The translations under genes were made by a program, and so were the position numbers. A DNA stretch of 64,000 nt from a bacterium (lineage in GTDB: Bacteria; Bdellovibrionota_C; UBA2361; CALJRW01): positions 32,001-96,000 of the forward strand of contig JANNBC010000013.1 in assembly GCA_031385045.1 (NCBI GenBank), in the 5' to 3' direction. The notes under the pieces were generated by a model, which worked only from the letters and a program-made list of their open reading frames with translations, ran no database searches and had not been told where the DNA came from. Position 1 is the stretch's first letter. The number at the start of each line of letters is the position of its first letter. Shown here piece after piece: positions 19,693 through 36,012 of this stretch.

Positions 19693-20157
19693 ATGGAACA
19701 AAGCAATATTTTTACTGAAATCCTTTTTGCTGGAACACTCTCAGGATTAGTAATCACTAGCCTAGTCACTTATATCTTTCATTTAATTTGGAAGAACTCG
19801 GGGTTCAATATTTCACCAGTCAAAGCTATTGGAGATGCCCTAGGAAATAAAGGCATTAAGAGTACAGGGGTTACTAGCTTGGTAGCTCACTTACTAATAG
19901 GTAGTATTTTAGGAGTTGTTTATTTCGCGTTACTATCTAAATTCAACCTCCCACCACTTCAGTCGATTCTAGCATCTACCGCAATTGGCTTTGGTCATGG
20001 GTTTGTTGTTGCCTTCCTAATTTTTAATAGTCTCAATGAGAAAGCAACAACAAAAGACGTCCGTGATTTCAGCCCAGCAATTAGTATTATCTACTTAGCG
20101 GCTCATGTAATTTTCGGACTAGTCATTGGAGCTCTTTACGCTAGCCTGATCGCTTAA
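19693..20157 (+). CDS. Hypothetical 4-TM membrane protein
   Basis: Four hydrophobic helices with intramembrane His (AHLLIG, GHGF, AHVIFG). Confidence 0.65.
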   Translation: MEQSNIFTEILFAGTLSGLVITSLVTYIFHLIWKNSGFNISPVKAIGDALGNKGIKSTGVTSLVAHLLIGSILGVVYFALLSKFNLPPLQSILASTAIGFGHGFVVAFLIFNSLNEKATTKDVRDFSPAISIIYLAAHVIFGLVIGALYASLIA

Positions 20158-20867
20158 AATCTAAATGTGAGATAAGCAGCAAGGGCTGTAATCCGACGAT
20201 CAGATTTATTTAAACGATCACTAGTCTCTACAAAGTATCCAACTTCAACTCTTGTTTTTTTATTATCCCAGTAAGGTCCAAAAAAGATTCGATTGCGATC
20301 GTAGCCAGACTTAACACTTGGCTTAACGGCATTTAGATTATAAAAATATTCATCATAAGCTGTTAAACCAACGACTGCTCCATCAGCCAAATCCATCAGT
20401 GGGTGAGAAACTCTAAGTAAATAGCGCAATCGATTAGCCTCTCCGTATACGCCCTCGATATAACGCTCTTCCAGACGTGCCCGATGATTAATCTGCCAAT
20501 TACCAAAAGTCTGATCATAAGTTACTTGTTGCCAAATGCGTTGCTCATCATTGAACTTATGGTTATACGCCGAATCCATAAAAAGCGGTGTCCAGGCATA
20601 CCCTAACCATAAAACAAGATTTGGCGCTAAGGCATAACCAACGGCCGGGCGAACTAATAAGCGCTCAGGATAACTAACATTGTCTCCAATCCTAGGTTGT
20701 AACTCTGCTGACCAACGCCAGTTAGAGCCTTCCTGAAACTTACCATTGGCCATAAAAGCTGACCAAAGCTGTGTATCATTCTCTGCCGACGCTAAGCTAC
20801 AAAAGCAAATGAACTGTAGAGCTAAAAAATAGCTAAAAAATAATTTTTGATAATTTTTTGTAAACAT
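20154..20867 (-). CDS. DUF2490 family outer-membrane beta-barrel protein
   Basis: Signal peptide, EQRIWQQ, HRARLEER, RLRY, AYDEYF, DRNR, C-terminal Phe. Confidence 0.85.
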   Translation of the reverse strand: MFTKNYQKLFFSYFLALQFICFCSLASAENDTQLWSAFMANGKFQEGSNWRWSAELQPRIGDNVSYPERLLVRPAVGYALAPNLVLWLGYAWTPLFMDSAYNHKFNDEQRIWQQVTYDQTFGNWQINHRARLEERYIEGVYGEANRLRYLLRVSHPLMDLADGAVVGLTAYDEYFYNLNAVKPSVKSGYDRNRIFFGPYWDNKKTRVEVGYFVETSDRLNKSDRRITALAAYLTFRF

Positions 20868-20878
20868 AAGTTTTACCC

Positions 20879-22168
20879 TTAAACTATATAATTATAAATC
20901 TTGAGTATTAGATCTGGCCCTAAGCCATTTACTAAAACAATAAAAATTAAAATAATTAGCGCCAGCTTTTCACGCAATTTTGGTTGAAATATTTTATTAT
21001 AAATTTGTAATGGATTTCCATAAAATGAATCTCCAAAAATTCGAAAGCAAGAATATCCATTTAAGGCTAAAGCAAAAACAAAGCACCCCGCCACCAACCA
21101 GTATTCCTGACTTAGATTATGAAGTAGAATTTCGATACTCATAAATCCTAACGTCCCAGGAAATCCAATTAAGGATAAAACACAGAAAAGAAAAGAAAGA
21201 CCAAATACCGGAAATGAGATCGCCAGGCCTGTTGCGGAATCTAAATTTTCTGGACCAATTCGATCTCGAAGCATAGCAATAATAATCACTAAACTACTAA
21301 TGCAAATGGAAGTATTAAAAAAATCCATAATCGAATGAATTTCGGAACCATGCTGCACCAACAGACCATTTAAAATAAAGAGCGGGACGTGCCACTGATA
21401 AAGGGAAGAAGCAATCCCACTCAACTTCCGCTCTCCAAATAAAATCAAAGCAGAATATAATAAATTAGCGGTTAGCATGATTAAAATAATCTTTGGATAT
21501 AAATGAAAGGCTGTAGTCATTAAAAAACCAAACTTGCACCAGAATACAAAACCAATATTCAAACGAATAATTGCCGCCAAGCCATATCTAGTTGGTGCTA
21601 AGAAAATTGGCTTAACCCAAAAATGAAACGGGAAAATTCCTACCATTAATGCCAAACTTAGGATGCCTAGAATAATTGTTGTTAGAGTTAAATGACTGGC
21701 AGAAGTCTGTAGCTGGCTAATAGTAAATAGACCATTAAAGACAGTCAGATTAACTAACAGCAAACTAAGTAAGCCAATGGCAATTAATGAAAAGCCACTA
21801 AATACTAAAAAGTAATGACTCTGCTTAATAGTTTGATAAACATCTTGTCGGCTAATTCGGATATGAAGTAACAGAGCGCAGGTAATAAAAAATATAAACA
21901 GCAGAAGACTGTCTGTTAATAAGCAAAAATTGATTAACAATTGCAGACAAAACCAACTATGCGAGAAGCGAAATTTAAAGATCCTAGAACCAAACGCTGA
22001 ATAGACCAGTGTCAACATCAAATTAAAGATCACTCCACAGAAGAGAGTTGGAGTCTGCAAAACTGCTTCCGAAATAAGTCCTAAATCTGTAGCATTTGGA
22101 TTACTAAATAACCAAACAAATAATGCCAAAAAGCAAATGCTGATTAAGGTATATAAATTTCTAATCAT
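20879..22168 (-). CDS. NuoM/MrpD-like proton-antiporter subunit associated with DAB
   Basis: GIFPFHFW and LSLIGFPGTLGFMSIE; polytopic; co-transcribed behind dabB. Confidence 0.8.
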   Translation of the reverse strand: MIRNLYTLISICFLALFVWLFSNPNATDLGLISEAVLQTPTLFCGVIFNLMLTLVYSAFGSRIFKFRFSHSWFCLQLLINFCLLTDSLLLFIFFITCALLLHIRISRQDVYQTIKQSHYFLVFSGFSLIAIGLLSLLLVNLTVFNGLFTISQLQTSASHLTLTTIILGILSLALMVGIFPFHFWVKPIFLAPTRYGLAAIIRLNIGFVFWCKFGFLMTTAFHLYPKIILIMLTANLLYSALILFGERKLSGIASSLYQWHVPLFILNGLLVQHGSEIHSIMDFFNTSICISSLVIIIAMLRDRIGPENLDSATGLAISFPVFGLSFLFCVLSLIGFPGTLGFMSIEILLHNLSQEYWLVAGCFVFALALNGYSCFRIFGDSFYGNPLQIYNKIFQPKLREKLALIILIFIVLVNGLGPDLILKIYNYIV

Positions 22169-22172
22169 TGCC

Positions 22173-23498
22173 TTACTTATGAATATTAAATTTTAGGAAG
22201 CGATAAAAAACTTTCTCAAACAAATGAAAAAGATATTCATTACAACGAAGATCAAAATATCTAAGCCCAGTAGAAGTTTTCTCAAGTAGATTTAAGACAC
22301 TCCATTTATCAGAAAAACTGGAGTAGTTCTCCCAAAAAACATAAGCATAGATTTTCTGCCAAAAAGTATTCCGCGCTGGAACCTTCTTCGGCTGATACTG
22401 ACCAATTGTATGCTGAAAAGCTTGATGATCATGCAGGAGTGAAGCAGCATTAAGCAGTTGGTATGTTCGCAGCAGTGCATGACCAATAAAGTGTACTAAA
22501 ACAATTGTCGTCCAGCCAAATCCAATCTCGATAAACATTACTCCTACCTGTGTCATGGCCGAAAATGCTAGCGTGCTTTTAGCATCACTTTGGATTTTGG
22601 CTAAAATCGATCCGTACAACACGGTTGTTAAGCCAACTAAAACTAACAAAACGGCAAACCAGACTGGACGACCAAGGCTTTCTGTAATCCTTAGTAGTAA
22701 ATAAATTCCAGCGTGCACCGATAGACCACCATAAAAAATAGCACTAGATGGGGTGGGACCTTCCATTGCTTTTGGCAACCAGTGACCAAAAGGAAACTGT
22801 GCCGACTTCCCCATCGCTGAAATCAAACACAAAATTAGGATTAAATTAATTGTTAGTGGCTGTTGAATACCACGCATATCTGTAAAACTTAAAATCCCTA
22901 AGTTAAGTACAATTAATGAAGCTAATAATAAACCAGTATCAGTAACGCGATATGCCCAAAAAGCCCGTAGGGAATTAGTAACAGTCTGCTTACGAAATGA
23001 GAAGAAGGCAATCAATAGAGCTGAAGTTAATCCTACAATTTCCCAGCCAATAAAAATTCCCGTTAAATTTCCAGACAGGACAATTAAATGCATCCCAAAA
23101 AGAAAAAAGTGATAAAGGACAAAGAATCTGAAATAACCAAGATCTCGATGCAGATACTTGGAAGCAAACACACCAACAATCGCGCCAAGTAAAACATTTA
23201 AACTGACAAAGGCTAGCGATAGATAATCAATTAAAAACTTAATCGAAATAGATTCCTGTCCAAAGTTTAGCAAATCAATACTAAGAAATTGCAGCTGTGA
23301 GTGACTATCTAATAAGAAGCGAAACCAAACAACACTGAGTGCAATGAACGATAAGGATTGAGAATAAAGAATAGTCTTAATAACTAATTTTTCACTAACC
23401 CTTCTCTGCACCAAGCGATCAATGACAATCACCAAAAGCGATAGAACTGGTAAAATAAAAATCAGCTGTGCTGCTAACTGTGAAATTAATTTAATCAT
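22173..23498 (-). CDS. dabB: Inorganic carbon transporter subunit DabB (NuoL-like)
   Basis: FIGWEIVGLTS, KSAQFPFGHWLPKAMEGPTPSSA, HAG, HALLRTYQLL; immediately downstream of dabA. Confidence 0.87.
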   Translation of the reverse strand: MIKLISQLAAQLIFILPVLSLLVIVIDRLVQRRVSEKLVIKTILYSQSLSFIALSVVWFRFLLDSHSQLQFLSIDLLNFGQESISIKFLIDYLSLAFVSLNVLLGAIVGVFASKYLHRDLGYFRFFVLYHFFLFGMHLIVLSGNLTGIFIGWEIVGLTSALLIAFFSFRKQTVTNSLRAFWAYRVTDTGLLLASLIVLNLGILSFTDMRGIQQPLTINLILILCLISAMGKSAQFPFGHWLPKAMEGPTPSSAIFYGGLSVHAGIYLLLRITESLGRPVWFAVLLVLVGLTTVLYGSILAKIQSDAKSTLAFSAMTQVGVMFIEIGFGWTTIVLVHFIGHALLRTYQLLNAASLLHDHQAFQHTIGQYQPKKVPARNTFWQKIYAYVFWENYSSFSDKWSVLNLLEKTSTGLRYFDLRCNEYLFHLFEKVFYRFLKFNIHK

Positions 23499-23503
23499 GA
23501 CTA

Positions 23504-26434
23504 CTACCTAATCCTTAAGAAATCTAAATTATCAGTTCTGGTAATAATCTTTTCTAAATAATTGTTACTAATTGGTAGGGTAATTAAATCAACTGGCTTC
23601 TCTCTAAAATTACCGTTAACATCATACTCTAAGAAAGTATTACTTAACTTATCCCAACAAACCAACCTCACCCAGTGCCCCCCAACCATTCGGCGAACCG
23701 TTGGGTCAGACTGAATTGCTTTTTGTAACTGTTCCAGCTGACAGCTAACAACCATTAGCAACCTAACTGGCTCGTGAATCTCAATCATTTGCTGTGGAAG
23801 TCCTGTTCGTAAATCACTACAAGTTCCATTCATTAAGCCCAACATGGAAACAATATTATGTGGTAGTTTCGATCCAGCTCCGTAAACTTCGTTATCAAGT
23901 GCTGAGAAGAAATATTCTAAGTTAATCCCACCACATACTGGAACAATCGCACGCATTATACCTGCTAGGATTTGTGCCTCAGCATCCTGAGTAGAATCAT
24001 AAGAAACTAAGAATGATCTTCGATCAAAGAATAGATTTTTTGTTTCCTCTCTTTTACCAACAAAGCACAAAGCATTTCCAGCATGCCCATATTCTGGCCG
24101 AGGCTCTGATAGAGTTTGAGACCGGGAATTCACTTCCTTAAAAGCAGCTAGTGGAGTTCGTACTGAAATTTGAGCAAAACGTCGACAACGCTCTAAGGAA
24201 TTATTCTGACAGGCCTGGACCATCAAATTTTTGATATCTGAAAATAGTTCTTGATGAGAGTCAGGAAGTAAATCTAGATCATAGTACTGAATCTGGTCAT
24301 TACATGTATTGTGATAAGCACCAATACAAAGAGTATCTTCTGGGATGATAATCCCAAAGCGATCCCGTAAGATTCTTCGAACAATTGGCTTATTAAACAT
24401 CATCGCAATCACGCGCGCATTCATTCGCCCTGGCCTACCACCGCAAGCTCCACAATCATACGCCGAGCGCAGGGGATTATTACGACTAGAAGATCCATGT
24501 CCATAAAAGACAACTAATCTACTAAAACCTTTAATCAGTCCAATTGTTTTTAAAACATTTGCGACACGCTCAGCCATTTCACCTTCGGTATAACCAAGAG
24601 TCTGATCATCTGCCTCTTCTAGGGAAGATATTTCAATTTCTAAATCTGAAAGTTCGGTTGTAAGCGATCCATCTAAATCAAAGAACTTACTAAAAGGTTT
24701 TCTGAGACGCGGAAAAAGAATACTAAAGAGCATCGGAAACAAAGAAAATATTCCGATAATTGTCATCAACCAGCCATGTAAAATTGAACCAGAGAAACGA
24801 GTTAAATAATTATTGAAATACAGATTAACAAATTGTCTTTTTTGCAGATTAAGTAAGCGATGACTGGCATCATCTTTTGGTTTTTGACGAACGATATGTG
24901 TTGGCTTAATTACAATTGGACAATATGGAGCATGTTCACCACTCATTGACTCATAAATAGCATCAATCCCAAAAAATCCAGCTGTCCCAAAAGTTTTGAT
25001 TGCTGGATTTAAGATCTCTAAATGCCGGCGGATTGACTCTTCCCGATCATCTAAACAAAAAACCATTTGTGCTAGTGCATCTGTTTCTGGAATTGAATTA
25101 TTAACATTAGATTTTAACGTTTTTAACGCTCGCTGATAAAGATTTTCTTCGTATGCTAAATGTAGAATTCTCTGTCTTTTAATTTTTGGATAAACTAAAA
25201 TCTGCTCAAGCAGATTTTCAAAATAATCCTGATTAGCAAAAACTGATAAGATATCTTTAGTATCTAAAACAACAGTGAATAAGTGATAAGCCAAGAAGAA
25301 AAGCTGATCGATTCGGCTCAGTGCCGCGCGGTTGGGTAGCTGTTGCTGAAGTAACAGTTCGCTAGAGCAAGATTTTCTAGCTAAATCTGATAACAGAATT
25401 CTTAAAGTCACATATTCCAATAAACTTGGTTTAATTTCTTGAGTTAATTCATGTAAATATTCTGGATTTTTCTCTGCAGAACAAATAAACCCAGCCCAAC
25501 CCTTAAGCGCTAGGACTTCGCTAAAAATTAACTCCTTGGCTTCACTTGAAGTTAATTCTTTTTTAGCCAATATTTCTAGTAATAAATCCTGCGGCTCAAC
25601 TCCACGGTAATAAGCAATATCTTTAGTAATCGGAGTTAGCCACTCTGGTAAGTATAGGTCTGACTTCTCCACAAGTGCGTAGAAAGATTTTAAAATACCC
25701 ACGGAGCGATTCGGCATCGAGATCGTAGCTTGTCCCAGATCTAGGTACTCTTCACAAAATCTAATCAAAAATGGATCAACTTTTTCCCTAACAATGGAGT
25801 CTTTATCAGCAAATTCAGAATGATAAGAAAGTTGCTTTGCAGCCACAGCCAGCAGACATCTTGTCCAGAGAGCCTCTTTGACTATTTCGCTTGGTATATT
25901 ATTTTTTAATGTTGCCTCAACTAAATTTCGTAATCCAATAGCAGCCTGCCGATTAATTTTTTCAAGGAATTTTGTTTCCGCCTGAAAAGTTTCTGAAGAC
26001 ACCCAAGTTTTAGCGTGGCTCACAACTTCAGAACTTACAGGTAAATGTAAATCTGATTCTCGTAGCAACCATTTAATTTGCTGAAAAGTTTTTGCTTCAG
26101 GAGTATTAACTAAAATACTTTTGATCAACACTAGGTTCTCTGGATCAACATTGGCATCATTTAAAACATAGTCCAAATCACTAGCAGAAATTCTTCCTTG
26201 TCGATAAAAATCAATATATTGATTTTCATCAAGATAAGCACGGGCATCAAAAATTCGCGCGCCTTCTTCTAAAGCTTCAAAGAATGATAAGTGCTCTAGT
26301 CCATGTAAAGTATTGTGATGGATGAAAACATCAATCGGCCCTTGGCTCGGTAACAATTCAGATAATTCTTCTAGGATCTGAGCAATAGTCTCAGAGCTTA
26401 GCTCCTCGTTTTTGTGATGAAATGGCATTAACAT
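23504..26434 (-). CDS. dabA: Inorganic carbon transporter subunit DabA (DUF2309/UPF0753)
   Basis: PSQGPIDVFIHHNTLH, FCLDDREESIRRHLE, GTAGFFG, GHGS, DCGACGG, RPEYGH, RRSFLVSYD, HEPVRL. Start moved from TTG 26497 to ATG 26434 (or 26428) because the extension overlaps an operator-like IR. Confidence 0.93.
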   Translation of the reverse strand: MLMPFHHKNEELSSETIAQILEELSELLPSQGPIDVFIHHNTLHGLEHLSFFEALEEGARIFDARAYLDENQYIDFYRQGRISASDLDYVLNDANVDPENLVLIKSILVNTPEAKTFQQIKWLLRESDLHLPVSSEVVSHAKTWVSSETFQAETKFLEKINRQAAIGLRNLVEATLKNNIPSEIVKEALWTRCLLAVAAKQLSYHSEFADKDSIVREKVDPFLIRFCEEYLDLGQATISMPNRSVGILKSFYALVEKSDLYLPEWLTPITKDIAYYRGVEPQDLLLEILAKKELTSSEAKELIFSEVLALKGWAGFICSAEKNPEYLHELTQEIKPSLLEYVTLRILLSDLARKSCSSELLLQQQLPNRAALSRIDQLFFLAYHLFTVVLDTKDILSVFANQDYFENLLEQILVYPKIKRQRILHLAYEENLYQRALKTLKSNVNNSIPETDALAQMVFCLDDREESIRRHLEILNPAIKTFGTAGFFGIDAIYESMSGEHAPYCPIVIKPTHIVRQKPKDDASHRLLNLQKRQFVNLYFNNYLTRFSGSILHGWLMTIIGIFSLFPMLFSILFPRLRKPFSKFFDLDGSLTTELSDLEIEISSLEEADDQTLGYTEGEMAERVANVLKTIGLIKGFSRLVVFYGHGSSSRNNPLRSAYDCGACGGRPGRMNARVIAMMFNKPIVRRILRDRFGIIIPEDTLCIGAYHNTCNDQIQYYDLDLLPDSHQELFSDIKNLMVQACQNNSLERCRRFAQISVRTPLAAFKEVNSRSQTLSEPRPEYGHAGNALCFVGKREETKNLFFDRRSFLVSYDSTQDAEAQILAGIMRAIVPVCGGINLEYFFSALDNEVYGAGSKLPHNIVSMLGLMNGTCSDLRTGLPQQMIEIHEPVRLLMVVSCQLEQLQKAIQSDPTVRRMVGGHWVRLVCWDKLSNTFLEYDVNGNFREKPVDLITLPISNNYLEKIITRTDNLDFLRIR

Positions 26435-26479
26435 AAATTTGTATATAATCTGATTAAGGGCAAGACTGTAAGTCAAAGG

Positions 26480-26520
26480 TTTAGTGACTAAATGCAATTT
26501 ATAAACATTTAGTCACTAAA
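26480..26520. promoter_or_regulatory. Twin palindromic operator-like sites upstream of dabA
   Basis: Perfect 15-bp IR TTTAGTGACTAAATG-N11-CATTTAGTCACTAAA; each arm contains the palindrome TTTAGT-N-ACTAAA. Confidence 0.6.
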
Positions 26521-26539: not shown

Positions 26540-28075
26540 TTACCCTGCTTTTTGAATCCTAGGGCTTCTGGCGATGTAGTTATTTAACTCCTGCATAAAC
26601 TCTTCATCGATAAATGAGCATTGTTGGCAGTCAATTACTACTGATTGATGAATTGTTAAGGCGTTTTCGGCAACTTTTTTAACTTTTGGAAAGTTTGTAA
26701 ACATCAACCCTTCAGTAAATGAAATTCGAGCCTGTTCCGAGTCACTCTCAATTACAAATTTTGGAGAGAAAACACTCTTAACAGAACGACACTTTAAACT
26801 TTCAAAAACTAAATAAAGTAAGAAGCCTCCAAATACTCCAGCTAGCAAATCAACCCCAACAGTAACAGCAAATGTTACAAAAAAGACTGCAAATGTGGAC
26901 TTCCCCTGATGCCAAGCATGCTTCCACTCAGGAATTGAGAAAAGACGATATCCAATCACAATTAAAATTGCAGCTAAAGCCGCAATTGGTAAATGATTCA
27001 AGATACCTGAGAAGAAAACTACAGCGACAAAAAGTAGGCCACCATGAATGAAGTTACTTCGGGAGCTTCTAGCTCCAAAATCGATATTTGCTTTACTACG
27101 ACCGATCTCTGAAATCATTGGAATACCACCAATCAGAGCAGCCAAACTATTAGCAAATCCGATTGCTATCAGATCTTTATTTAGATCAGCTTGCTCTTCC
27201 GGAGAGCGACTCTTGTTGATTGCCTTTACTGTTAACAAAGATTCGATACATCCGATTACTGAGAACAAAAAGATAAACTTCCAAGCAGTAAAGGTTGTTA
27301 GCGCACTCCAATTTGGAGTAACAAACCCTTGGGAAAGTGAATCTGGCAAATGAATCAAGAAGGAATCATTTAACTGATAGCTAGCACCAAAGAATTGATA
27401 TGAGTGGCTTTCACCCAAAGCAAACATAAAACTAGCTGTAATTGCTAAAAGCAACACGACCAAAGCACCAGGAATCTTAAAATACTTTTTTAACTTTGGA
27501 TTTAAGGAACAAACCATAACAGCAAGACTGACCAAGCCAATTATAGAAATTAATGGATTAGCTAAATGTAAGCTTTGGAAGAGATTACTGATTAACTCTA
27601 GAGGAGAATGACCGACGGCCTTCATCCCTAGTAAAAAGTAAGTCTGCTTTGCCATCACAATTAATCCGATAGCAGAAATCATGCCATGGACAACGGAAGC
27701 AGGAATGTAATCAATTAATTTTCCTAGCTTAAAGTAACCCATCATCACCTGGAATAAACCTGAAATGAGAGCCACTGCTAAAACAGCACGATAGCCAGCT
27801 AGTAGGTCACCACCAGCACCTAACTCGGTAACGCCTGCTAGAACAATAACAATTAGTCCCGCCGGAGCACCTTTAATTGAGAACTTAGCTCCACCAATAA
27901 ACCCTGTTAAGAGGCCACCAATAATTGAGGTAATAATACCTGCAATTGGCGGACAACCACTAGCCACGGCAATCGCCATACATAAAGGGAGAGTAATGAG
28001 AAAAACTAAAAAACCTGAGTTCAGATCCTTTACCATGTCACCGGAGCGACATTTAGAAAAAGTTGGAAAATGCAT
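26540..28075 (-). CDS. SulP/SLC26 family anion (probably bicarbonate) transporter
   Basis: DLNSGFLVFLITLPLCMAIAVASG, IESLLT, DLNKDL, GGIPMISEIGRS, short STAS-like tail. Confidence 0.92.
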   Translation of the reverse strand: MHFPTFSKCRSGDMVKDLNSGFLVFLITLPLCMAIAVASGCPPIAGIITSIIGGLLTGFIGGAKFSIKGAPAGLIVIVLAGVTELGAGGDLLAGYRAVLAVALISGLFQVMMGYFKLGKLIDYIPASVVHGMISAIGLIVMAKQTYFLLGMKAVGHSPLELISNLFQSLHLANPLISIIGLVSLAVMVCSLNPKLKKYFKIPGALVVLLLAITASFMFALGESHSYQFFGASYQLNDSFLIHLPDSLSQGFVTPNWSALTTFTAWKFIFLFSVIGCIESLLTVKAINKSRSPEEQADLNKDLIAIGFANSLAALIGGIPMISEIGRSKANIDFGARSSRSNFIHGGLLFVAVVFFSGILNHLPIAALAAILIVIGYRLFSIPEWKHAWHQGKSTFAVFFVTFAVTVGVDLLAGVFGGFLLYLVFESLKCRSVKSVFSPKFVIESDSEQARISFTEGLMFTNFPKVKKVAENALTIHQSVVIDCQQCSFIDEEFMQELNNYIARSPRIQKAG

Positions 28076-28129
28076 ATAAAAATATTTTGTTAAAGTTACT
28101 TATTAATTTCGATAGAAGACGCAAGAGTA

Positions 28130-28447
28130 TTAAGCTGTGGCAGGAGGCGCGCGTCCGAAATTAGTAACTTGATAACTACTAGAAAATAATCTTTTGAATT
28201 GATAGCTAGGAATAATCGCGACCAAAGTGCGATTTGTTTGACTTGTAAAATCTTGACCTGCAATAATAAACTTCAGCAAGTCGATTGCTTGAAAACCATC
28301 TAAGTCATCCCGAGACTCAAATTTTTTAATTTCTAAAGTTTTATTGATTGAGCTGTCACAAGAATTGTGAATATCAGCAACGGCCTGAACAAAGCCAGTG
28401 AAGACAAGAATTGTTAAAAAAAGTTTCCGAAGAAACAAACCACACAT
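28130..28447 (-). CDS. Secreted leader protein ending in a RAPP motif (putative ribosome-arrest peptide)
   Basis: N-terminal signal-like segment, C-terminus ...FGRAPPATA*; stop lies 54 nt ahead of the sulP ORF on the same strand. Confidence 0.65.
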   Translation of the reverse strand: MCGLFLRKLFLTILVFTGFVQAVADIHNSCDSSINKTLEIKKFESRDDLDGFQAIDLLKFIIAGQDFTSQTNRTLVAIIPSYQFKRLFSSSYQVTNFGRAPPATA

Positions 28448-29048
28448 AAAAATATTTAGTGCAAAGGAATTTTGATAGCAAACAAAAACAAAATTTTAGG
28501 GCTATCCAGTTTGTATCTTATAGAGGAGGTTTGTTTCTTACACAATGGACTAGTCAATGAATTTCTAAACTAGTAACCCACACAAGTTTCCAATAGGCAG
28601 ACTTAACACCTTAAAATCACTTGCTTTTTAGGCCTAATAGAAAATTTAGGTAAAAATAAAAATTTTCTTTATAAGCTTTTTGATTAAAATCAGTCCCGAT
28701 TAAGAAATGTTTAACAAGTACTTATCTCTAATAGCTTTTAATCAGAACTAAAAATTATTAAAAAGTTTTTTAATAATTTCCATTAAAAAATTTTAAAGAT
28801 AAAATCAAATCATATTCATTTGGTTAATTTCTCATTGATGTTGAATTATCAGATAAACCTGACGGAAGTTAAATATGTTAACCCTTTCCGAATAATTAAT
28901 TTAAAATAACGTCATTGTATTTAATGTTTTTGAGTAGTACTCTTTTTTTGAGATAAAACTCAAATCCGAAAATACATGCTTATTGTCATGCCAAAGCCTT
29001 AGAAATTAACAATGGCTTTTTTACTAATTATATTTTTGTATTAGAACA

Positions 29049-29258
29049 ATGTTAGAAAAAGAATCTCCAAATACGACTAACTTAACAGGTGAAGCACTTA
29101 GAGAACATCTAGCGAATCACTACAAGAATACGATTGGAACATCCCCAGTCGACCCTGCCGCTACTTTGCCAGCTAGCGGAAGGCGCTTTGATATTGCTGC
29201 TCTAGTTTTGGTTGCCTCTCAACAATGTCTTGAACTTGTAAGCAACCTTCCATTATAA
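29049..29258 (+). CDS. Small hypothetical protein
   Basis: 69-aa ATG ORF at the end of a 600-bp AT-rich gap; no motif. Confidence 0.4.
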   Translation: MLEKESPNTTNLTGEALREHLANHYKNTIGTSPVDPAATLPASGRRFDIAALVLVASQQCLELVSNLPL

Positions 29259-29283
29259 GCCTTTGGTTTAATCTGGTTACTCG

Positions 29284-31284
29284 CTAATTATTAATTACTG
29301 CCTTTCCTAAAAACTGGAAACTAACTTGTGGGTGATTTTTTTTAGAGTTAAAAACTCGAACCTTACCATCAGGCAGTGATTCCAGCTCGTAATCATTGAT
29401 TATTTCACTAGCTTCATGATTAGCTGCAACTAAGATAATGCCTCGATCTGTTTGAATAAAATCTAATGCTGGTAAATCTTCTCTCAATAATCGAAGAAAA
29501 CTTTTATATGAATAATCAGTAATTAAGGAGTTATTAATCACTAAAGTTGGAGTTTCTGAATCCAAATTTCCAACTAAGCCAATTGGAGTGATTTCAGCAA
29601 TCGTAAATGGGATTGCCTTTTCTGTGATCAGCTCATCCTCTTGATCTCTAAAGAAGAGTCCAGTGTATCCTTCTTCTCCAACGAACAAACAACAAATCTC
29701 TTCCTTGTTATAGTAATGCACACCGATCAAGGCTCCAAAGATTTCTCTCTGCTCAAGACTAACTAAATGATTCGCACAGTAAAAAGTAAGTGTTCCATCT
29801 CGTGCACTCTCTGCTAAGCAAGTCAGCTCATTATTCTCATTTACATGAATCCCAATTGGCCAATTGGGATTATTTGGAAATTTAACTGAACGTAAATTAA
29901 ACATCTGCAAAGGATCTAAGATCAGTTTCCATCCAGTGCTGGAACATAGTAATTCTGGGATAATTGCTTTCGAACTGGGAAGGACGTGACAAGGCATACT
30001 AGTAATAAAAATACTATTCTCACTCTCCTGCAAAAATTCGCCATTAAAAATACAGTGCTTCTGTCCAGCAGTCTGAACTATGGCGTTTCCAGTAGCATGA
30101 AACTCTGGACAAGCTTGAAAAGCTTCCACTTGTTGCTGATTAATTAGAAAAATAGCATTAATAATAGGATAACCTTCAGCACATAAAGAAACAATACAAA
30201 GTGCCCGACCCCGATCTTCAATTGTTGCTTGAAAAAAAAGTTTCCCTTGATAAAAAACCGGTGAGGTTTCTAGCTCCATTGCTAAGATTCCATCGAAGGA
30301 AGGATCGTTACTTAAAAAATCTGAATCTTCTAATTGAAAACTACTTAAATCATAATTCAGAAATGGTAAGCTCCGATCATCTTTTGTCAGCTCGCCCCAA
30401 AATACAATTTGAGACTTGCCTTTAATTTCAACTAAGGCTGAGTGAATATCAAAGATTGGGTAATCATCAACCGAGAGCTTCTCATGTAACTCGCCCTCTT
30501 TAATTAAGTAAACAAACTTACTTGTAGCAATAATCCCAGTAGGCTTTTTTGTTTCCTTAAGAAATTCGGCATTAATAAAGTCACCATCTAAATCTACAGG
30601 GAAAATCTGATTAGACTGAAAAAGATATAACTCTCGGCCAACTTGATACACCCCTAAGGTCTGGCCGAAATCATTATAAGCCAAAACATTGAAACGATTC
30701 GGCGTAATCAAGCCAACTTTTAACATTGGCTTGCCATTAACTAATGAATAGAGATGCGTCTGATCTGCAGTGCTCGCATCTAAATCTAACACCTCAACAA
30801 TTGCCTTATTTTGAGCTGGAGCAATTTCTAGAACTCTTTTGATTCGTCCTACTTTCGTATCAATCAATACTTGTCCACTAATAAGTGGAAACTGACTGCC
30901 ATAATATTCGACAACTCCATACTTCTCACCTAAAACTTGCCACCGATCTTGTACTTTAGAAATTATAGTACAGGCTAAGAGTTCATTTAAAATTCCTTCT
31001 GCCGGCAAAAAAACACCCTGATTAGCTTTTAATTGAGTGATAGATTTAAGAGCAGTAGTAAGAGATTGATCATCAACGACAGTCGGAATCACTGCCTTCC
31101 CAAAATCAAACTCCTTAATTACTCTAACTGCATTTGCGGGATCTTTTGTTAGATCTAGTTTAAGAATTGCTACGAGCGCGAAACAAGCCCGATAAAGATC
31201 AGAACGTAAGCTCCGTGGTAAGCTTTCTTCGCACTTAACAGCATTTACAAGAACAGGAAGACTTTGGACTAAATCTGACAACAT
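29284..31284 (-). CDS. Hypothetical protein (helical N-terminus, beta-rich remainder)
   Basis: 666-aa ORF; no recognisable family. Confidence 0.65.
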   Translation of the reverse strand: MLSDLVQSLPVLVNAVKCEESLPRSLRSDLYRACFALVAILKLDLTKDPANAVRVIKEFDFGKAVIPTVVDDQSLTTALKSITQLKANQGVFLPAEGILNELLACTIISKVQDRWQVLGEKYGVVEYYGSQFPLISGQVLIDTKVGRIKRVLEIAPAQNKAIVEVLDLDASTADQTHLYSLVNGKPMLKVGLITPNRFNVLAYNDFGQTLGVYQVGRELYLFQSNQIFPVDLDGDFINAEFLKETKKPTGIIATSKFVYLIKEGELHEKLSVDDYPIFDIHSALVEIKGKSQIVFWGELTKDDRSLPFLNYDLSSFQLEDSDFLSNDPSFDGILAMELETSPVFYQGKLFFQATIEDRGRALCIVSLCAEGYPIINAIFLINQQQVEAFQACPEFHATGNAIVQTAGQKHCIFNGEFLQESENSIFITSMPCHVLPSSKAIIPELLCSSTGWKLILDPLQMFNLRSVKFPNNPNWPIGIHVNENNELTCLAESARDGTLTFYCANHLVSLEQREIFGALIGVHYYNKEEICCLFVGEEGYTGLFFRDQEDELITEKAIPFTIAEITPIGLVGNLDSETPTLVINNSLITDYSYKSFLRLLREDLPALDFIQTDRGIILVAANHEASEIINDYELESLPDGKVRVFNSKKNHPQVSFQFLGKAVINN

Positions 31285-31445: not shown

Positions 31446-32210
31446 GTGCTCCCATTAATTCAACCAACTCAAAAAGTAGCTCTAGAAATTGAGTTTAAAT
31501 ATCTATTACAAGATCCCGCTCCTAAACTATTGCAACAACTAGCTTTAAGTCCAATTCAAAAATTTATTGCTCAATATCATTTCAGCCGAGACTTAAGCCA
31601 GGCGATGCTACTACCAATCATGAGAGAACTTTGCCCAGAACAAATAGCATCGGTTGATGCTACTAGATTAAAGGGTCGAGTCCGAAAACTCACAGTGGAT
31701 GATCAAGTAAAATATATTCTTGGATTAAAGGGCCCGAAAGACGAAGCATTCAAACGACTAAATATCGTTTCTAAACCAGAAATTGAAGCGGAGTGTACAG
31801 AAGCAGAGTTTAAAAAACTAAAGAGAAATGCAGATAAAGGATATATTATTAAACAGCGCACTGTAGTTCCCTGTACCGTTTTACATGAAGGAACTACTTA
31901 TCAACTACAAGCTGAGTTTGATAAAGTTACTACTGTTAATGGTTATCATTTAAGACCAAATTTTCTAATTATGGAAATCGAAGTTCCAGAAGAAAATTCA
32001 ACTAAGATCATTCAAGCCGTAAGGAAAGGAATTGTCACCTTACACTTGCTAGATATGGATTTAAATCTTGATACTCTGAATAAAATCGAAATACCAATTG
32101 ATTGCGCCGAAGACTACGCTGACTTAATGGCCAGTAGTAAGCTAGTTGAGAACATCCATCATAAACATGGACCAGTGAGACATCTTAAGAAATTCTTTGA
32201 CTTAGCCTAA
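31446..32210 (+). CDS. CYTH/triphosphate tunnel metalloenzyme-like protein
   Basis: N-terminal EIEFKYL (ExExK), RVRK, LGLKG, EIE, IIKQR, MEIE. Confidence 0.72.
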   Translation: MLPLIQPTQKVALEIEFKYLLQDPAPKLLQQLALSPIQKFIAQYHFSRDLSQAMLLPIMRELCPEQIASVDATRLKGRVRKLTVDDQVKYILGLKGPKDEAFKRLNIVSKPEIEAECTEAEFKKLKRNADKGYIIKQRTVVPCTVLHEGTTYQLQAEFDKVTTVNGYHLRPNFLIMEIEVPEENSTKIIQAVRKGIVTLHLLDMDLNLDTLNKIEIPIDCAEDYADLMASSKLVENIHHKHGPVRHLKKFFDLA

Positions 32211-34890: not shown

Positions 34891-36012
34891 ATGCCTGAAA
34901 AACATTCTAAATCCTTTAAACAGTTTTTTAATGAGCAATTCGAACTCTGGTCACTAGAGAACAATCTTAGCTTAAGAGATCTAGCAGACCGTTGCGGAGT
35001 TACCTCCTCCTATCTTGGGCAGGTCAAAAATTATGGTCGAATCCCAGGTCTTCCTGTATTAATCCTTCTGGCCTTTAACTTTAAACTTTCTAAGCCAGCT
35101 GATATTCTAAAAATTGCCGAAATCAATTCTACTTGGCCTTATCGCCCAAATATCAAATTAAAAGATAGCCAAGATGAGACTCCTGGATTTATAAATTTTA
35201 AAATTGACATGAGTGGTTTTCAAGGAGCGATCAGAGAAATTGTTCGCGACGAAATTCGTCCTCAGAGCTTGCCAGAATTAAACTCCAAGACAACCCTGCG
35301 GATCGGCATCAACCCATTGCAAAGTGGTTTTCAAAACAAATCCAAACAACATATCTTCCAAGAACTTTTCCAACTAATCACAGTTAGCATGCATGCTAAT
35401 TTAGAATTTGTAGAAGTAGATCATCGCAACGCTTTAGAAATGCTAAAATCTGGTCGCCTAGATATTTATGGCCCACTTTACATTACCGCCTCAAGAATCG
35501 GCCACTACACTTTTTCTGAACCTCTGGGCCACTCCCCAATGTCCGTTTTCTGGAGAACAGCTCCAAGTAAATTCCTAGAAGAATTGCCTATTCCACAAAA
35601 TTTACAAGAAATAAAAAAGAACCCATATAAAATAGCAGTCCTAGCAGAAACGTGTAGTCATGATTTTGCTCGTAATATTTTAAACCTCAACTCAGAAAAT
35701 CTAATTATCTGTGAAAATCCAGAGGAAATAATTGAACGCGTAACCCTTAGTGGACTAAAAAGATCAGCCCACTTTGCCTTCTGTGACTTGCTAACATCAA
35801 GCTCTATCCAAGAAGACTTTCCATCTTCTGTGAAATTACTTTTTAAAGATAATCCCCTACAGCCAGGATACGACTTATCAATTGCAGTGAGAGAAGACTG
35901 GCCGGACTTCTTAAGAAAACTAAATACCACAATTACTTTTCTAAAATCCCACGGCAGCCTTGAGGATCTCTACCAACGCCATAGTATTGATTTTTTAAAT
36001 TTCCAAAAATAA
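34891..36012 (+). CDS. XRE-type HTH regulator fused to a solute-binding (SBP family 3-like) domain
   Basis: LSLRDLADRCGVTSSYLGQVKNYGRIP HTH; then LRIGI, LKSGRLDI, ITASR...FSEP, LKSHGSLEDLYQRH; no signal peptide. Confidence 0.8.
   Translation: MPEKHSKSFKQFFNEQFELWSLENNLSLRDLADRCGVTSSYLGQVKNYGRIPGLPVLILLAFNFKLSKPADILKIAEINSTWPYRPNIKLKDSQDETPGFINFKIDMSGFQGAIREIVRDEIRPQSLPELNSKTTLRIGINPLQSGFQNKSKQHIFQELFQLITVSMHANLEFVEVDHRNALEMLKSGRLDIYGPLYITASRIGHYTFSEPLGHSPMSVFWRTAPSKFLEELPIPQNLQEIKKNPYKIAVLAETCSHDFARNILNLNSENLIICENPEEIIERVTLSGLKRSAHFAFCDLLTSSSIQEDFPSSVKLLFKDNPLQPGYDLSIAVREDWPDFLRKLNTTITFLKSHGSLEDLYQRHSIDFLNFQK

Follow-up and report, generated by a model that had tools for sequence, protein, structure and literature searches.

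A RAPP-type arrest-peptide-like leader at the head of a SulP-DAB inorganic carbon uptake operon in the Bdellovibrionota_C lineage

Organisation of the locus

The window analysed here (the whole 64,000-nucleotide stretch, positions 32,001 to 96,000 of contig JANNBC010000013.1) carries a short leader ORF followed by a SulP-DAB operon; the leader and all operon features described below lie on the minus strand. The sulP gene (26540..28075) encodes a SulP/SLC26 anion transporter (PF00916) that scores below the BicA and DauA cut-offs; the SulP family has many substrates, and HCO3- is the probable one here, judging from context. It is followed by dabA (23504..26497), encoding an inorganic carbon transporter subunit (PF10070, E 3e-206) whose motifs C481-D-R (Cys-x-Asp-x-Arg), GHGS and CGACGG match the zinc site described for DabA2 (PMC13144422). 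The next two genes were assigned by profile searches to a dabB-like NuoL/MrpA membrane subunit (22173..23498) and a NuoM/MrpD-like membrane subunit (20879..22168). A PF10070 subunit with zinc ligands thus adjoins a PF00361 subunit, which places the system among the DAB/DAC pumps; DAB2 is driven by the PMF (PMC13144422).

The last gene of the run (20154..20867) encodes a DUF2490 protein with a signal-like N-terminus and is absent at this place in a genome of the same genus. DUF2490 recurs near sulP-dab loci, both in the order (six of the loci L002-L030) and in Verrucomicrobiota, and the protein is a candidate outer-membrane partner of the pump.

The genome is 2.83 Mb in length, with a 36.8% GC content and 95% completeness. 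It encodes a beta-carbonic anhydrase elsewhere and gave no match to RuBisCO, so the pump's likely role is to supply anaplerotic or biosynthetic carboxylation. DAB as the sole bicarbonate source was rejected in view of the beta-carbonic anhydrase gene. Upstream of the leader, the nearest gene ends 837 nt away, and the leader therefore probably heads its own transcript. A 666-aa protein without a Pfam match (window 29284-31284) is conserved upstream of the leader in the same-genus genome. Further along the window are an HTH_3 repressor domain fused to an SBP_bac_3 solute-binding domain (34891-36012), also conserved in that genome, and an exported protein of 829 aa with a hydrazine synthase alpha middle domain (PF18582; 36019-38508).

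Features and conservation of the leader

Below, G000 is the window's genome, G001 the same-genus genome, P0001-3 the leader homologues, and L-numbers the loci compared. The leader ORF (uORF; 28130..28447) encodes 105 aa. It begins with MCGLFLRK and a hydrophobic stretch, has HNSC at residues 27-30 and ends FGRAPPATA*, leaving three residues beyond RAPP; its stop codon lies 54 nt from the ATG (28075) of the co-directional sulP gene in G000, and 96 nt from it in G001. The ORF, its signal-like start, both motifs and the 54-nt distance had been reported in a preliminary description of this DNA and are confirmed in the sequence. Residues 1-24 (28376..28447) form a putative Sec/SPI signal peptide as judged by inspection, with an RK n-region, a hydrophobic core (hydropathy 2.57) and A-V-A, an A-x-A site, before D25. 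H27-x-x-C30 (28358..28369) is present in all three homologues within a block that is about 85% conserved overall. An acidic cluster, E44-S-R-D-D-L-D50 (28298..28318), is located 51-57 residues before Pro101; its net charge is modest (3 in 8 aa), and E44, D47, D48 and D50 are invariant in 3/3 homologues. A diverged linker (residues 60-97; 28157..28270) leads to the RAPP codons (R99-P102; 28142..28153), where the ribosome is predicted to stall with P101 in the P site, by analogy with a CruR toeprint (PMC12992588).

A protein search with the leader returned three sequences: itself, a 61% relative and a 52% relative. Scanning metagenomes with the leader alignment gave 150 hits, none of which was confirmed, and the leader family stands at three sequences. 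The gene order leader-sulP-dabA-dabB-nuoM is the same in G001, and the two leaders are identical at 51/59 positions over residues 1-59 and at 7/38 over residues 60-97, with the length of the linker kept. Codons 25-59 differ by 9 synonymous and 3 non-synonymous changes, codons 60-97 by 2 synonymous and 31 non-synonymous changes, and the GRAPP codons by 4 synonymous and 0 non-synonymous changes; the third homologue (P0003) has RGPP in place of RAPP. The linker has diverged, yet at the motif the codons change only synonymously or RGPP replaces RAPP, so selection acts on the peptide. Residues 25-59 are better conserved than SulP itself (32/35 codons identical or synonymous). AlphaFold models of the three leader sequences have a pLDDT of 51, and residues 25-59 are modelled as a helix at low confidence. 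A 151-nt piece recovered from four DNA runs (short, shallow contigs) has 9/14 listed differences at third codon positions, too thin a sample to count. Taken as sequence, a conserved exported part, a free linker of fixed length and a conserved motif are what is expected of an arrest peptide.

Of the 15,870 mechanical ORFs (≥30 aa) of the genome, 7 carry a RAPP-like motif no more than 15 aa from their end, and RAPP itself is found only in this leader. Three of the seven do not overlap a larger ORF: this leader and two QAPP leaders of metal operons. RAPP, RGPP and RAGP are absent from the 730,324 aa of genome ORFs of at least 200 aa, a zero that is not significant alone because reordered motifs occur just 1-3 times each. 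The argument against chance rests instead on conservation and on the positional enrichment described in the next section.

RAPP/RGPP leaders upstream of sulP in other genomes

The 30 best sulP loci of the genome's own order and class include three with a leader: the window, G001, and L006, which has RSPP. None was found at the other 27, four of which have less than 700 nt of upstream DNA. A wider genome set drew 80 sulP loci from named genomes across many phyla; the upstream DNA was long enough in 74, and a leader was scored as an ORF of at least 60 codons with R[AG]PP no more than 8 aa from its end and located within 400 nt before sulP. Such leaders were found at 9/74 loci, against 0.23 expected from the same loci; AAPP/AGPP and the antisense strand each gave 0, and four other control patterns gave 0-1. 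In eight of these nine, a strongly hydrophobic segment lies 88-145 aa before the C-terminus. The ninth (L037, RAPP), which has none, was judged a chance match: it is counted in the 9/74 and left out of the charge tally below, which does include a leader lying 533 nt upstream of its sulP (L108) and hence outside the 74. Where dabA follows sulP within 1.7 kb (33 loci of the genome set), 7/33 have the leader, in records labelled Myxococcota, delta proteobacterium, Spirochaetaceae and Planctomycetota. In a metagenome set of 80 loci, R[AG]PP leaders were found at 11/69 against 0.17 expected, with AAPP/AGPP and the antisense strand again at 0. R[AG]PP leaders are thus enriched about 40- to 65-fold before sulP; the two sets share some relatives, and BLAST groups the 24 SulP leaders into 18 clusters.

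By these sequence counts, the pairing of RAPP/RGPP leaders with sulP is real, cross-phylum and patchy. The preliminary description had proposed that a RAPP-type arrest-like leader heads the SulP-DAB operon, and had named as a check the search for ORFs with C-terminal RAPP upstream of homologous sulP genes; the arrangement is kept in the same order in G001 and enriched in other phyla, as the proposal would predict.

Two further ORFs lie outside the scoring rule. At L094, an ORF ending in RGPP is found about 1950 nt before sulP and precedes a 408-aa exported protein ahead of sulP-dabA; it may be a leader at the true head of that operon. At L003 (978-1370; G100), a 130-aa ORF with two hydrophobic stretches ends DLSPPLRA 136 nt before sulP-dabA and is possibly a decayed or variant leader.

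Relation to known arrest peptides

Secretory uORF arrest peptides with RAPP or RGPP have been described before diverse genes by Fujiwara et al. (EMBO J 2025; PMC12992588). In that study two cores, RAPP and RGPP, gave arrest in all contexts tested, 7/7 tested Streptomyces lividans proteins with C-terminal RAPP/RGPP arrested, and what supplies the pulling force on non-Sec RAPP peptides is named as an open question. Like members of that class, the leader is shorter than 300 aa and has a signal-like N-terminus, RAPP near the C-terminus and a co-directional downstream gene; on its sequence, it shows every testable feature of the class. The RAPP source list of the same paper comprises at least 8,420 rows; SulP is downstream in at least 15 of them, and in 13 of these the motif lies, by eye, close to the C-terminus. 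Neither the top-30 table nor the main text includes SulP, and the paper's Appendix may list SulP or DAB; the supplements searched gave no match for DUF2309, carbonic anhydrase or inorganic carbon, and the sections examined make no mention of an acidic cluster. The preliminary description knew of no account of this pairing: the main text is indeed silent on SulP, but RAPP-uORF/SulP pairs are present in the source data. Literature searches for a RAPP leader paired with DAB or bicarbonate, for an acidic-cluster voltage sensor, and for regulation of DAB/DAC pumps outside carboxysome autotrophs returned nothing relevant.

CruR of Bordetella pertussis (DUF2946; PMC9426467) is likewise the first gene of its operon and has a C-terminal RAPP, and its stalling turns downstream expression on. 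Its own features are a CXXC copper site, Rho-dependent termination, a 162-nt spacer and copper genes downstream. CutF of Rhodobacter capsulatus (PMC9973294; 10.1101/2025.02.05.636593) has a Sec signal, a stem over the next start and a short spacer, and resembles the leader with its short spacer and its putative signal peptide and stem; it is exported co-translationally and its stall melts that stem (PMC9973294), which for the leader is a prediction. CutF differs in having a copper-binding CxxxC, a proline-rich tail rather than RAPP, a stem that masks the Shine-Dalgarno sequence, and a ligand-induced stall. DUF2946/CruR/CutF leaders precede metal-homeostasis genes, in place of which sulP-dabA-dabB stands here. 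The leader matches no Pfam family at E 0.1, P0001-3 match no NCBIfam family, and there is no CXXC; the DUF2946/CruR likeness drawn in the preliminary description accordingly does not extend to family membership.

In SecM, ApdA, ApdP and the RQH family (PMC10987492), force-released arrest of the RAPP type is tied to export. SecM-type leaders precede secA, secDF or yidC and feed back on the pulling machine; here sulP-dab follows the leader, and the window's downstream genes, unlike the targets of SecM-type leaders, do not act on the nascent chain. No RAPP-like leader was found before secD in five leader-bearing genomes, two of which have little or no upstream DNA there. By its sequence and context, then, the leader is neither a Sec monitor nor a member of the DUF2946/CruR/CutF group.

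The genome also carries leaders of metal operons. A 144-aa His/Cys-rich leader ending APQAPP (L122/L140; G000:C26:138823-139257, minus strand) lies 56 nt before a TolC-CzcB-like operon; QAPP leaders occur in 8/30 loci homologous to it, and it looks like an ordinary metal-sensing leader. A 135-aa Cys-rich leader with the same APQAPP ending (L123; G000:C33:7520-7927, plus strand) is followed after 54 nt by a lipoprotein-like gene, a TolC-like gene and a multicopper oxidase.

Predicted RNA structure between leader and sulP

Shine-Dalgarno sequences are rare in this genome (GGAG in 4% and AGGA in 8% of 959 starts), and sulP has none upstream of its start. A long stem is predicted over 28089..28176 (MFE -30 kcal/mol, z -2.1), its 5' arm (28176-28150) in the 3' end of the leader and its 3' arm (28123-28089) in the spacer. 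Its stability was matched by 2/200 shuffles, and the fold z-scores of G000 and G001 are only about -2. The stem covers a 19-nt AU-rich block of the spacer (28086..28104; -29 to -11 of the sulP ATG) that is common to both genomes although their spacers differ in length. The predicted pairing partner of the block is the set of leader codons just before RAPP in G000, and the last leader codons and stop in G001; the duplex energies are -15.0 kcal/mol (reached by 0/1000 shuffles) and -11.2 kcal/mol (23/1000), respectively. Folding of the region in search of an RBS-occluding hairpin had been proposed in the preliminary description: a stem is indeed predicted, but what it covers is the AU-rich block, with no Shine-Dalgarno sequence in it. 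A hairpin that masks a Shine-Dalgarno sequence was ruled out, as sulP has none.

When a ribosome footprint was blocked at Pro101, the energy needed to open the region -35..+13 fell in G000 from 10.7 to 5.7-6.2, a drop of about 4.5-5 kcal/mol, and in G001 from 9.2 to 6.1-6.3, a drop of about 3. Opening of the region -20..+13 became easier by 2.4-2.9 kcal/mol in G000 and not at all in G001 (4.6 vs 5.0-5.2). The folding model thus gives moderate backing to a CutF-like logic in which the stall turns the operon on; a CruR-type Rho mechanism could act too.

A small hairpin in the first sulP codons (28035..28052), over the second in-frame AUG, recurs in G001, where the changes to it are one-sided; sulP may truly start at M1 or at M14. 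Upstream of the leader, a 33-nt non-coding block (28517..28549) is kept in G001. It is pyrimidine-rich, with an anti-SD-like run on the leader's strand, and is a possible promoter or operator; it has no sigma-70 consensus hit. A sigma-70 scan gave eight promoter-like sites (6.0 expected by chance), none at this block on the leader's strand, and a terminator scan gave none on that strand. Rfam had no match at E 1 over 27800-29400, which indicates that no known riboswitch is present.

Acidic cluster and controls

The preliminary description had named Zn, pH and export state as candidate signals. The SulP leaders of other phyla share no His/Cys position. What most of them have in common is an acidic cluster, defined as a net acidic charge of 3 or more in 8 aa located 40-65 aa before the stall, a range chosen after the first set had been seen, so that the metagenome set alone was scored after the rule was fixed. 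Of the SulP leaders 21/24 have the cluster, and of the control leaders, which precede efflux genes, 3/10; raising the threshold to net 4 gives 16/24 and 1/10. The controls are few and mostly QAPP, and 8/10 come from one class. By sequence cluster the counts are 15/18 and 2/8 (Fisher p 0.008, kin not being independent). Metagenome-set leaders reach net 4 or more in 10/11 cases. In about 9/11 RAPP leaders, the 8-residue segment with the most acidic charge is located between 35 and 65 residues ahead of the stall, against 4.0 in shuffles (0/1000).

Several observations bear on specificity. The window leader's own cluster scores net 3, with K41-K42 adjoining, and equals that of the genome's czc leader L140. 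Lineage-matched controls yielded just two leaders in 42 loci, one of which (L276) scores net 4. In the source list of PMC12992588, about 2/27 secD leaders have the cluster by eye, and most of 29 cation/proton antiporter leaders lack it by eye, a few having it; the cluster is therefore not a mark of all PMF-linked genes. Nor is it specific to carbon uptake.

Other candidate devices at the head of the operon

In Bacteroidota-labelled or allied loci with the order dabA-dabB-sulP, a short ORF heads the operon in 8/9 cases. These ORFs encode 118-141 aa in seven and up to 181 aa in L063, and share a hydrophobic N-terminus, an acidic run and a tail P-L-Y-I-L-x-x-x-L/F/W-R/K. Operon heads of this type were collected at L041, L063, L066, L083, L085, L088, L090, L098, L174 and L184, and a looser version of the tail occurs in leaders immediately before sulP at L075 and L103. 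Seven of the leaders were compared with Pfam and matched no family over the cut-off. A profile of the tail alone, run over 61 genomes, added a more distant leader upstream of dabA (L174) and a paralogue (L130; L138:1830-2243 in G110) that precedes an RND efflux operon with MFP, AcrB-type and TolC-like genes, about 24 kb from the dab operon. The acidic cluster is present in 10/10 leaders with this tail and, by eye, in L174 as well; in the ten, the most acidic window lies 35-65 residues before the stall in 9/10, against 3.3 in shuffles (0/1000); the RND-pump leader scores net 5. From its sequence, the P-L-Y-I-L tail is a candidate new arrest motif. Papers matching a literature search for it describe other motifs, and their supplements may cover it.

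At eight leaderless loci a two-component pair is divergent from sulP or close upstream, and a kinase or regulator was confirmed by Pfam in the five loci tested. Leaderless sulP-dabA operons with a divergent two-component system are seen at L031, L034, L036, L037, L040, L055, L065 and L102; the acidobacterial ones share a short HisKA_3 kinase and a LuxR regulator, a candidate CO2/pH sensor. We infer that the operon head is often occupied by one of three kinds of sensing device.

Proposed mechanism

The leader is real and, to judge from its sequence, likely a functional arrest leader, and voltage-assisted release is our best guess for the signal. The leader ribosome would stall at RAPP, which we consider highly probable, while its putative signal peptide threads the chain into SecYEG. 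The stalled ribosome would partly melt the predicted stem over the sulP start region, and a long stall would turn the sulP-dab operon on, a polarity that the folding model makes rather probable. Release would come from export-coupled pulling. The acidic cluster, at its distance from the stall, would lie in the translocon, where the membrane potential would pull on its acidic residues; this part of the account is tentative. A transmembrane helix makes its first contact with the membrane at about 45 residues from the PTC (10.1101/2021.12.23.474019), so the chain should be at the membrane at the cluster's distance. Potential-driven pulling on acidic stretches releases SecM arrest, and basic and neutral stretches gave some release too (review PMC6028853, citing Ismail 2015).

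With a well-energised membrane, the ribosome would be released, the stem would refold and the operon would be off; at low potential, or when export is slow, the stall would persist and keep the operon on for a PMF-driven CO2 pump. As DAB is driven by the PMF, a leader stalled at low potential would raise pump levels when each pump is weak. The membrane potential is smaller at lower external pH, and the same leader would also raise pump levels under that condition, with CO2 dominant. DIC species follow pH, with CO2 dominating at lower pH (PMC10880623). For the whole account (RAPP arrest, stall as the on state, voltage-assisted export-coupled release), we put the probability at roughly 0.4.

Alternative explanations

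The RAPP leader might instead report general Sec/YidC throughput and pace the production of four membrane-bound proteins, the acidic cluster being incidental. Its architecture is the same as that of Sec-monitoring RAPP peptides (PMC10987492), the operon encodes three polytopic membrane proteins, and the leaders of an RND pump and of a few secD genes have acidic clusters too. Under the predicted polarity, however, a long stall would increase membrane load rather than reduce it, and while about 25/27 secD leaders lack the cluster (by eye), SulP leaders keep it at a fixed distance; we regard this explanation as unlikely. Metal sensing of the CruR/CutF kind, with H27-x-x-C30 binding periplasmic Zn and matching the zinc enzyme DabA (PMC13144422) to zinc supply, would draw on the invariance of H27 and C30 in 3/3 homologues just after the predicted cleavage site, and on NHC at that position in the genome's metal leaders. 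The mature leader has one His and one Cys, with no CXXC, CxxxC or His-rich metal site and no DUF2946 match, against 6-10 His in each of eight czc leaders from the same class, and HxxC falls within a generally conserved block. A zinc site, which the preliminary description had also entertained, is disfavoured because HxxC is not common to the SulP leaders, which are His-poor beside metal leaders; we find it distinctly unlikely.

Chemical sensing of pH or CO2/HCO3- by the exported acidic or Lys-rich segment, through protonation or carbamylation with folding as the source of pull, is in keeping with the conservation of residues 25-59 above that of SulP, with their low-confidence helix model and with the dependence of DIC species on pH (PMC10880623). 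Across phyla, though, just charge and distance are common to the 24 leaders (18 BLAST clusters), so that they have no common fold or site; such sensing is very improbable. It is also quite improbable that the ORF has no regulatory function and either encodes a small exported protein or acts as a constitutive translational coupler, with RAPP playing no conditional part. Most relatives do run the same operon without a leader, and S. lividans RAPP peptides mostly failed to arrest E. coli ribosomes (PMC12992588), from which it follows that arrest depends on context. Such an ORF would nevertheless leave unexplained why RAPP/RGPP is kept against a diverged background and enriched 40- to 65-fold at this one place, and why a second kind of leader or a two-component system replaces it in other lineages.

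Implications

Three observations are new. In two genomes a conserved AU-rich block ahead of the sulP start is predicted to be masked by a stem, which the stalled ribosome, in a moderately supportive folding model, partly opens. In place of a His/Cys site, most SulP leaders have acidic residues clustered 40-65 residues ahead of the predicted stall. In Bacteroidota, DAB operons have a leader of the same architecture whose tail is different.

A doubtful extension of the voltage-assisted reading is a cross-phylum class of nascent-chain voltmeters, in which a signal peptide would be followed by an acidic cluster held within SecYEG and by an arrest tail that can be exchanged, and which would gate CO2/bicarbonate pumps and some other PMF-driven transporters. 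The tail would be RAPP/RGPP in Myxococcota, Planctomycetota, Spirochaetota and this lineage, and P-L-Y-I-L in Bacteroidota, whose leaders would add a second arrest motif. The locus is a compact test case: a single leader of 105 aa, with its charge cluster at a set distance from the stall, is separated from sulP by only 54 nt. If the voltage reading is true, it would provide a natural regulatory use for a force so far seen only with engineered SecM constructs.
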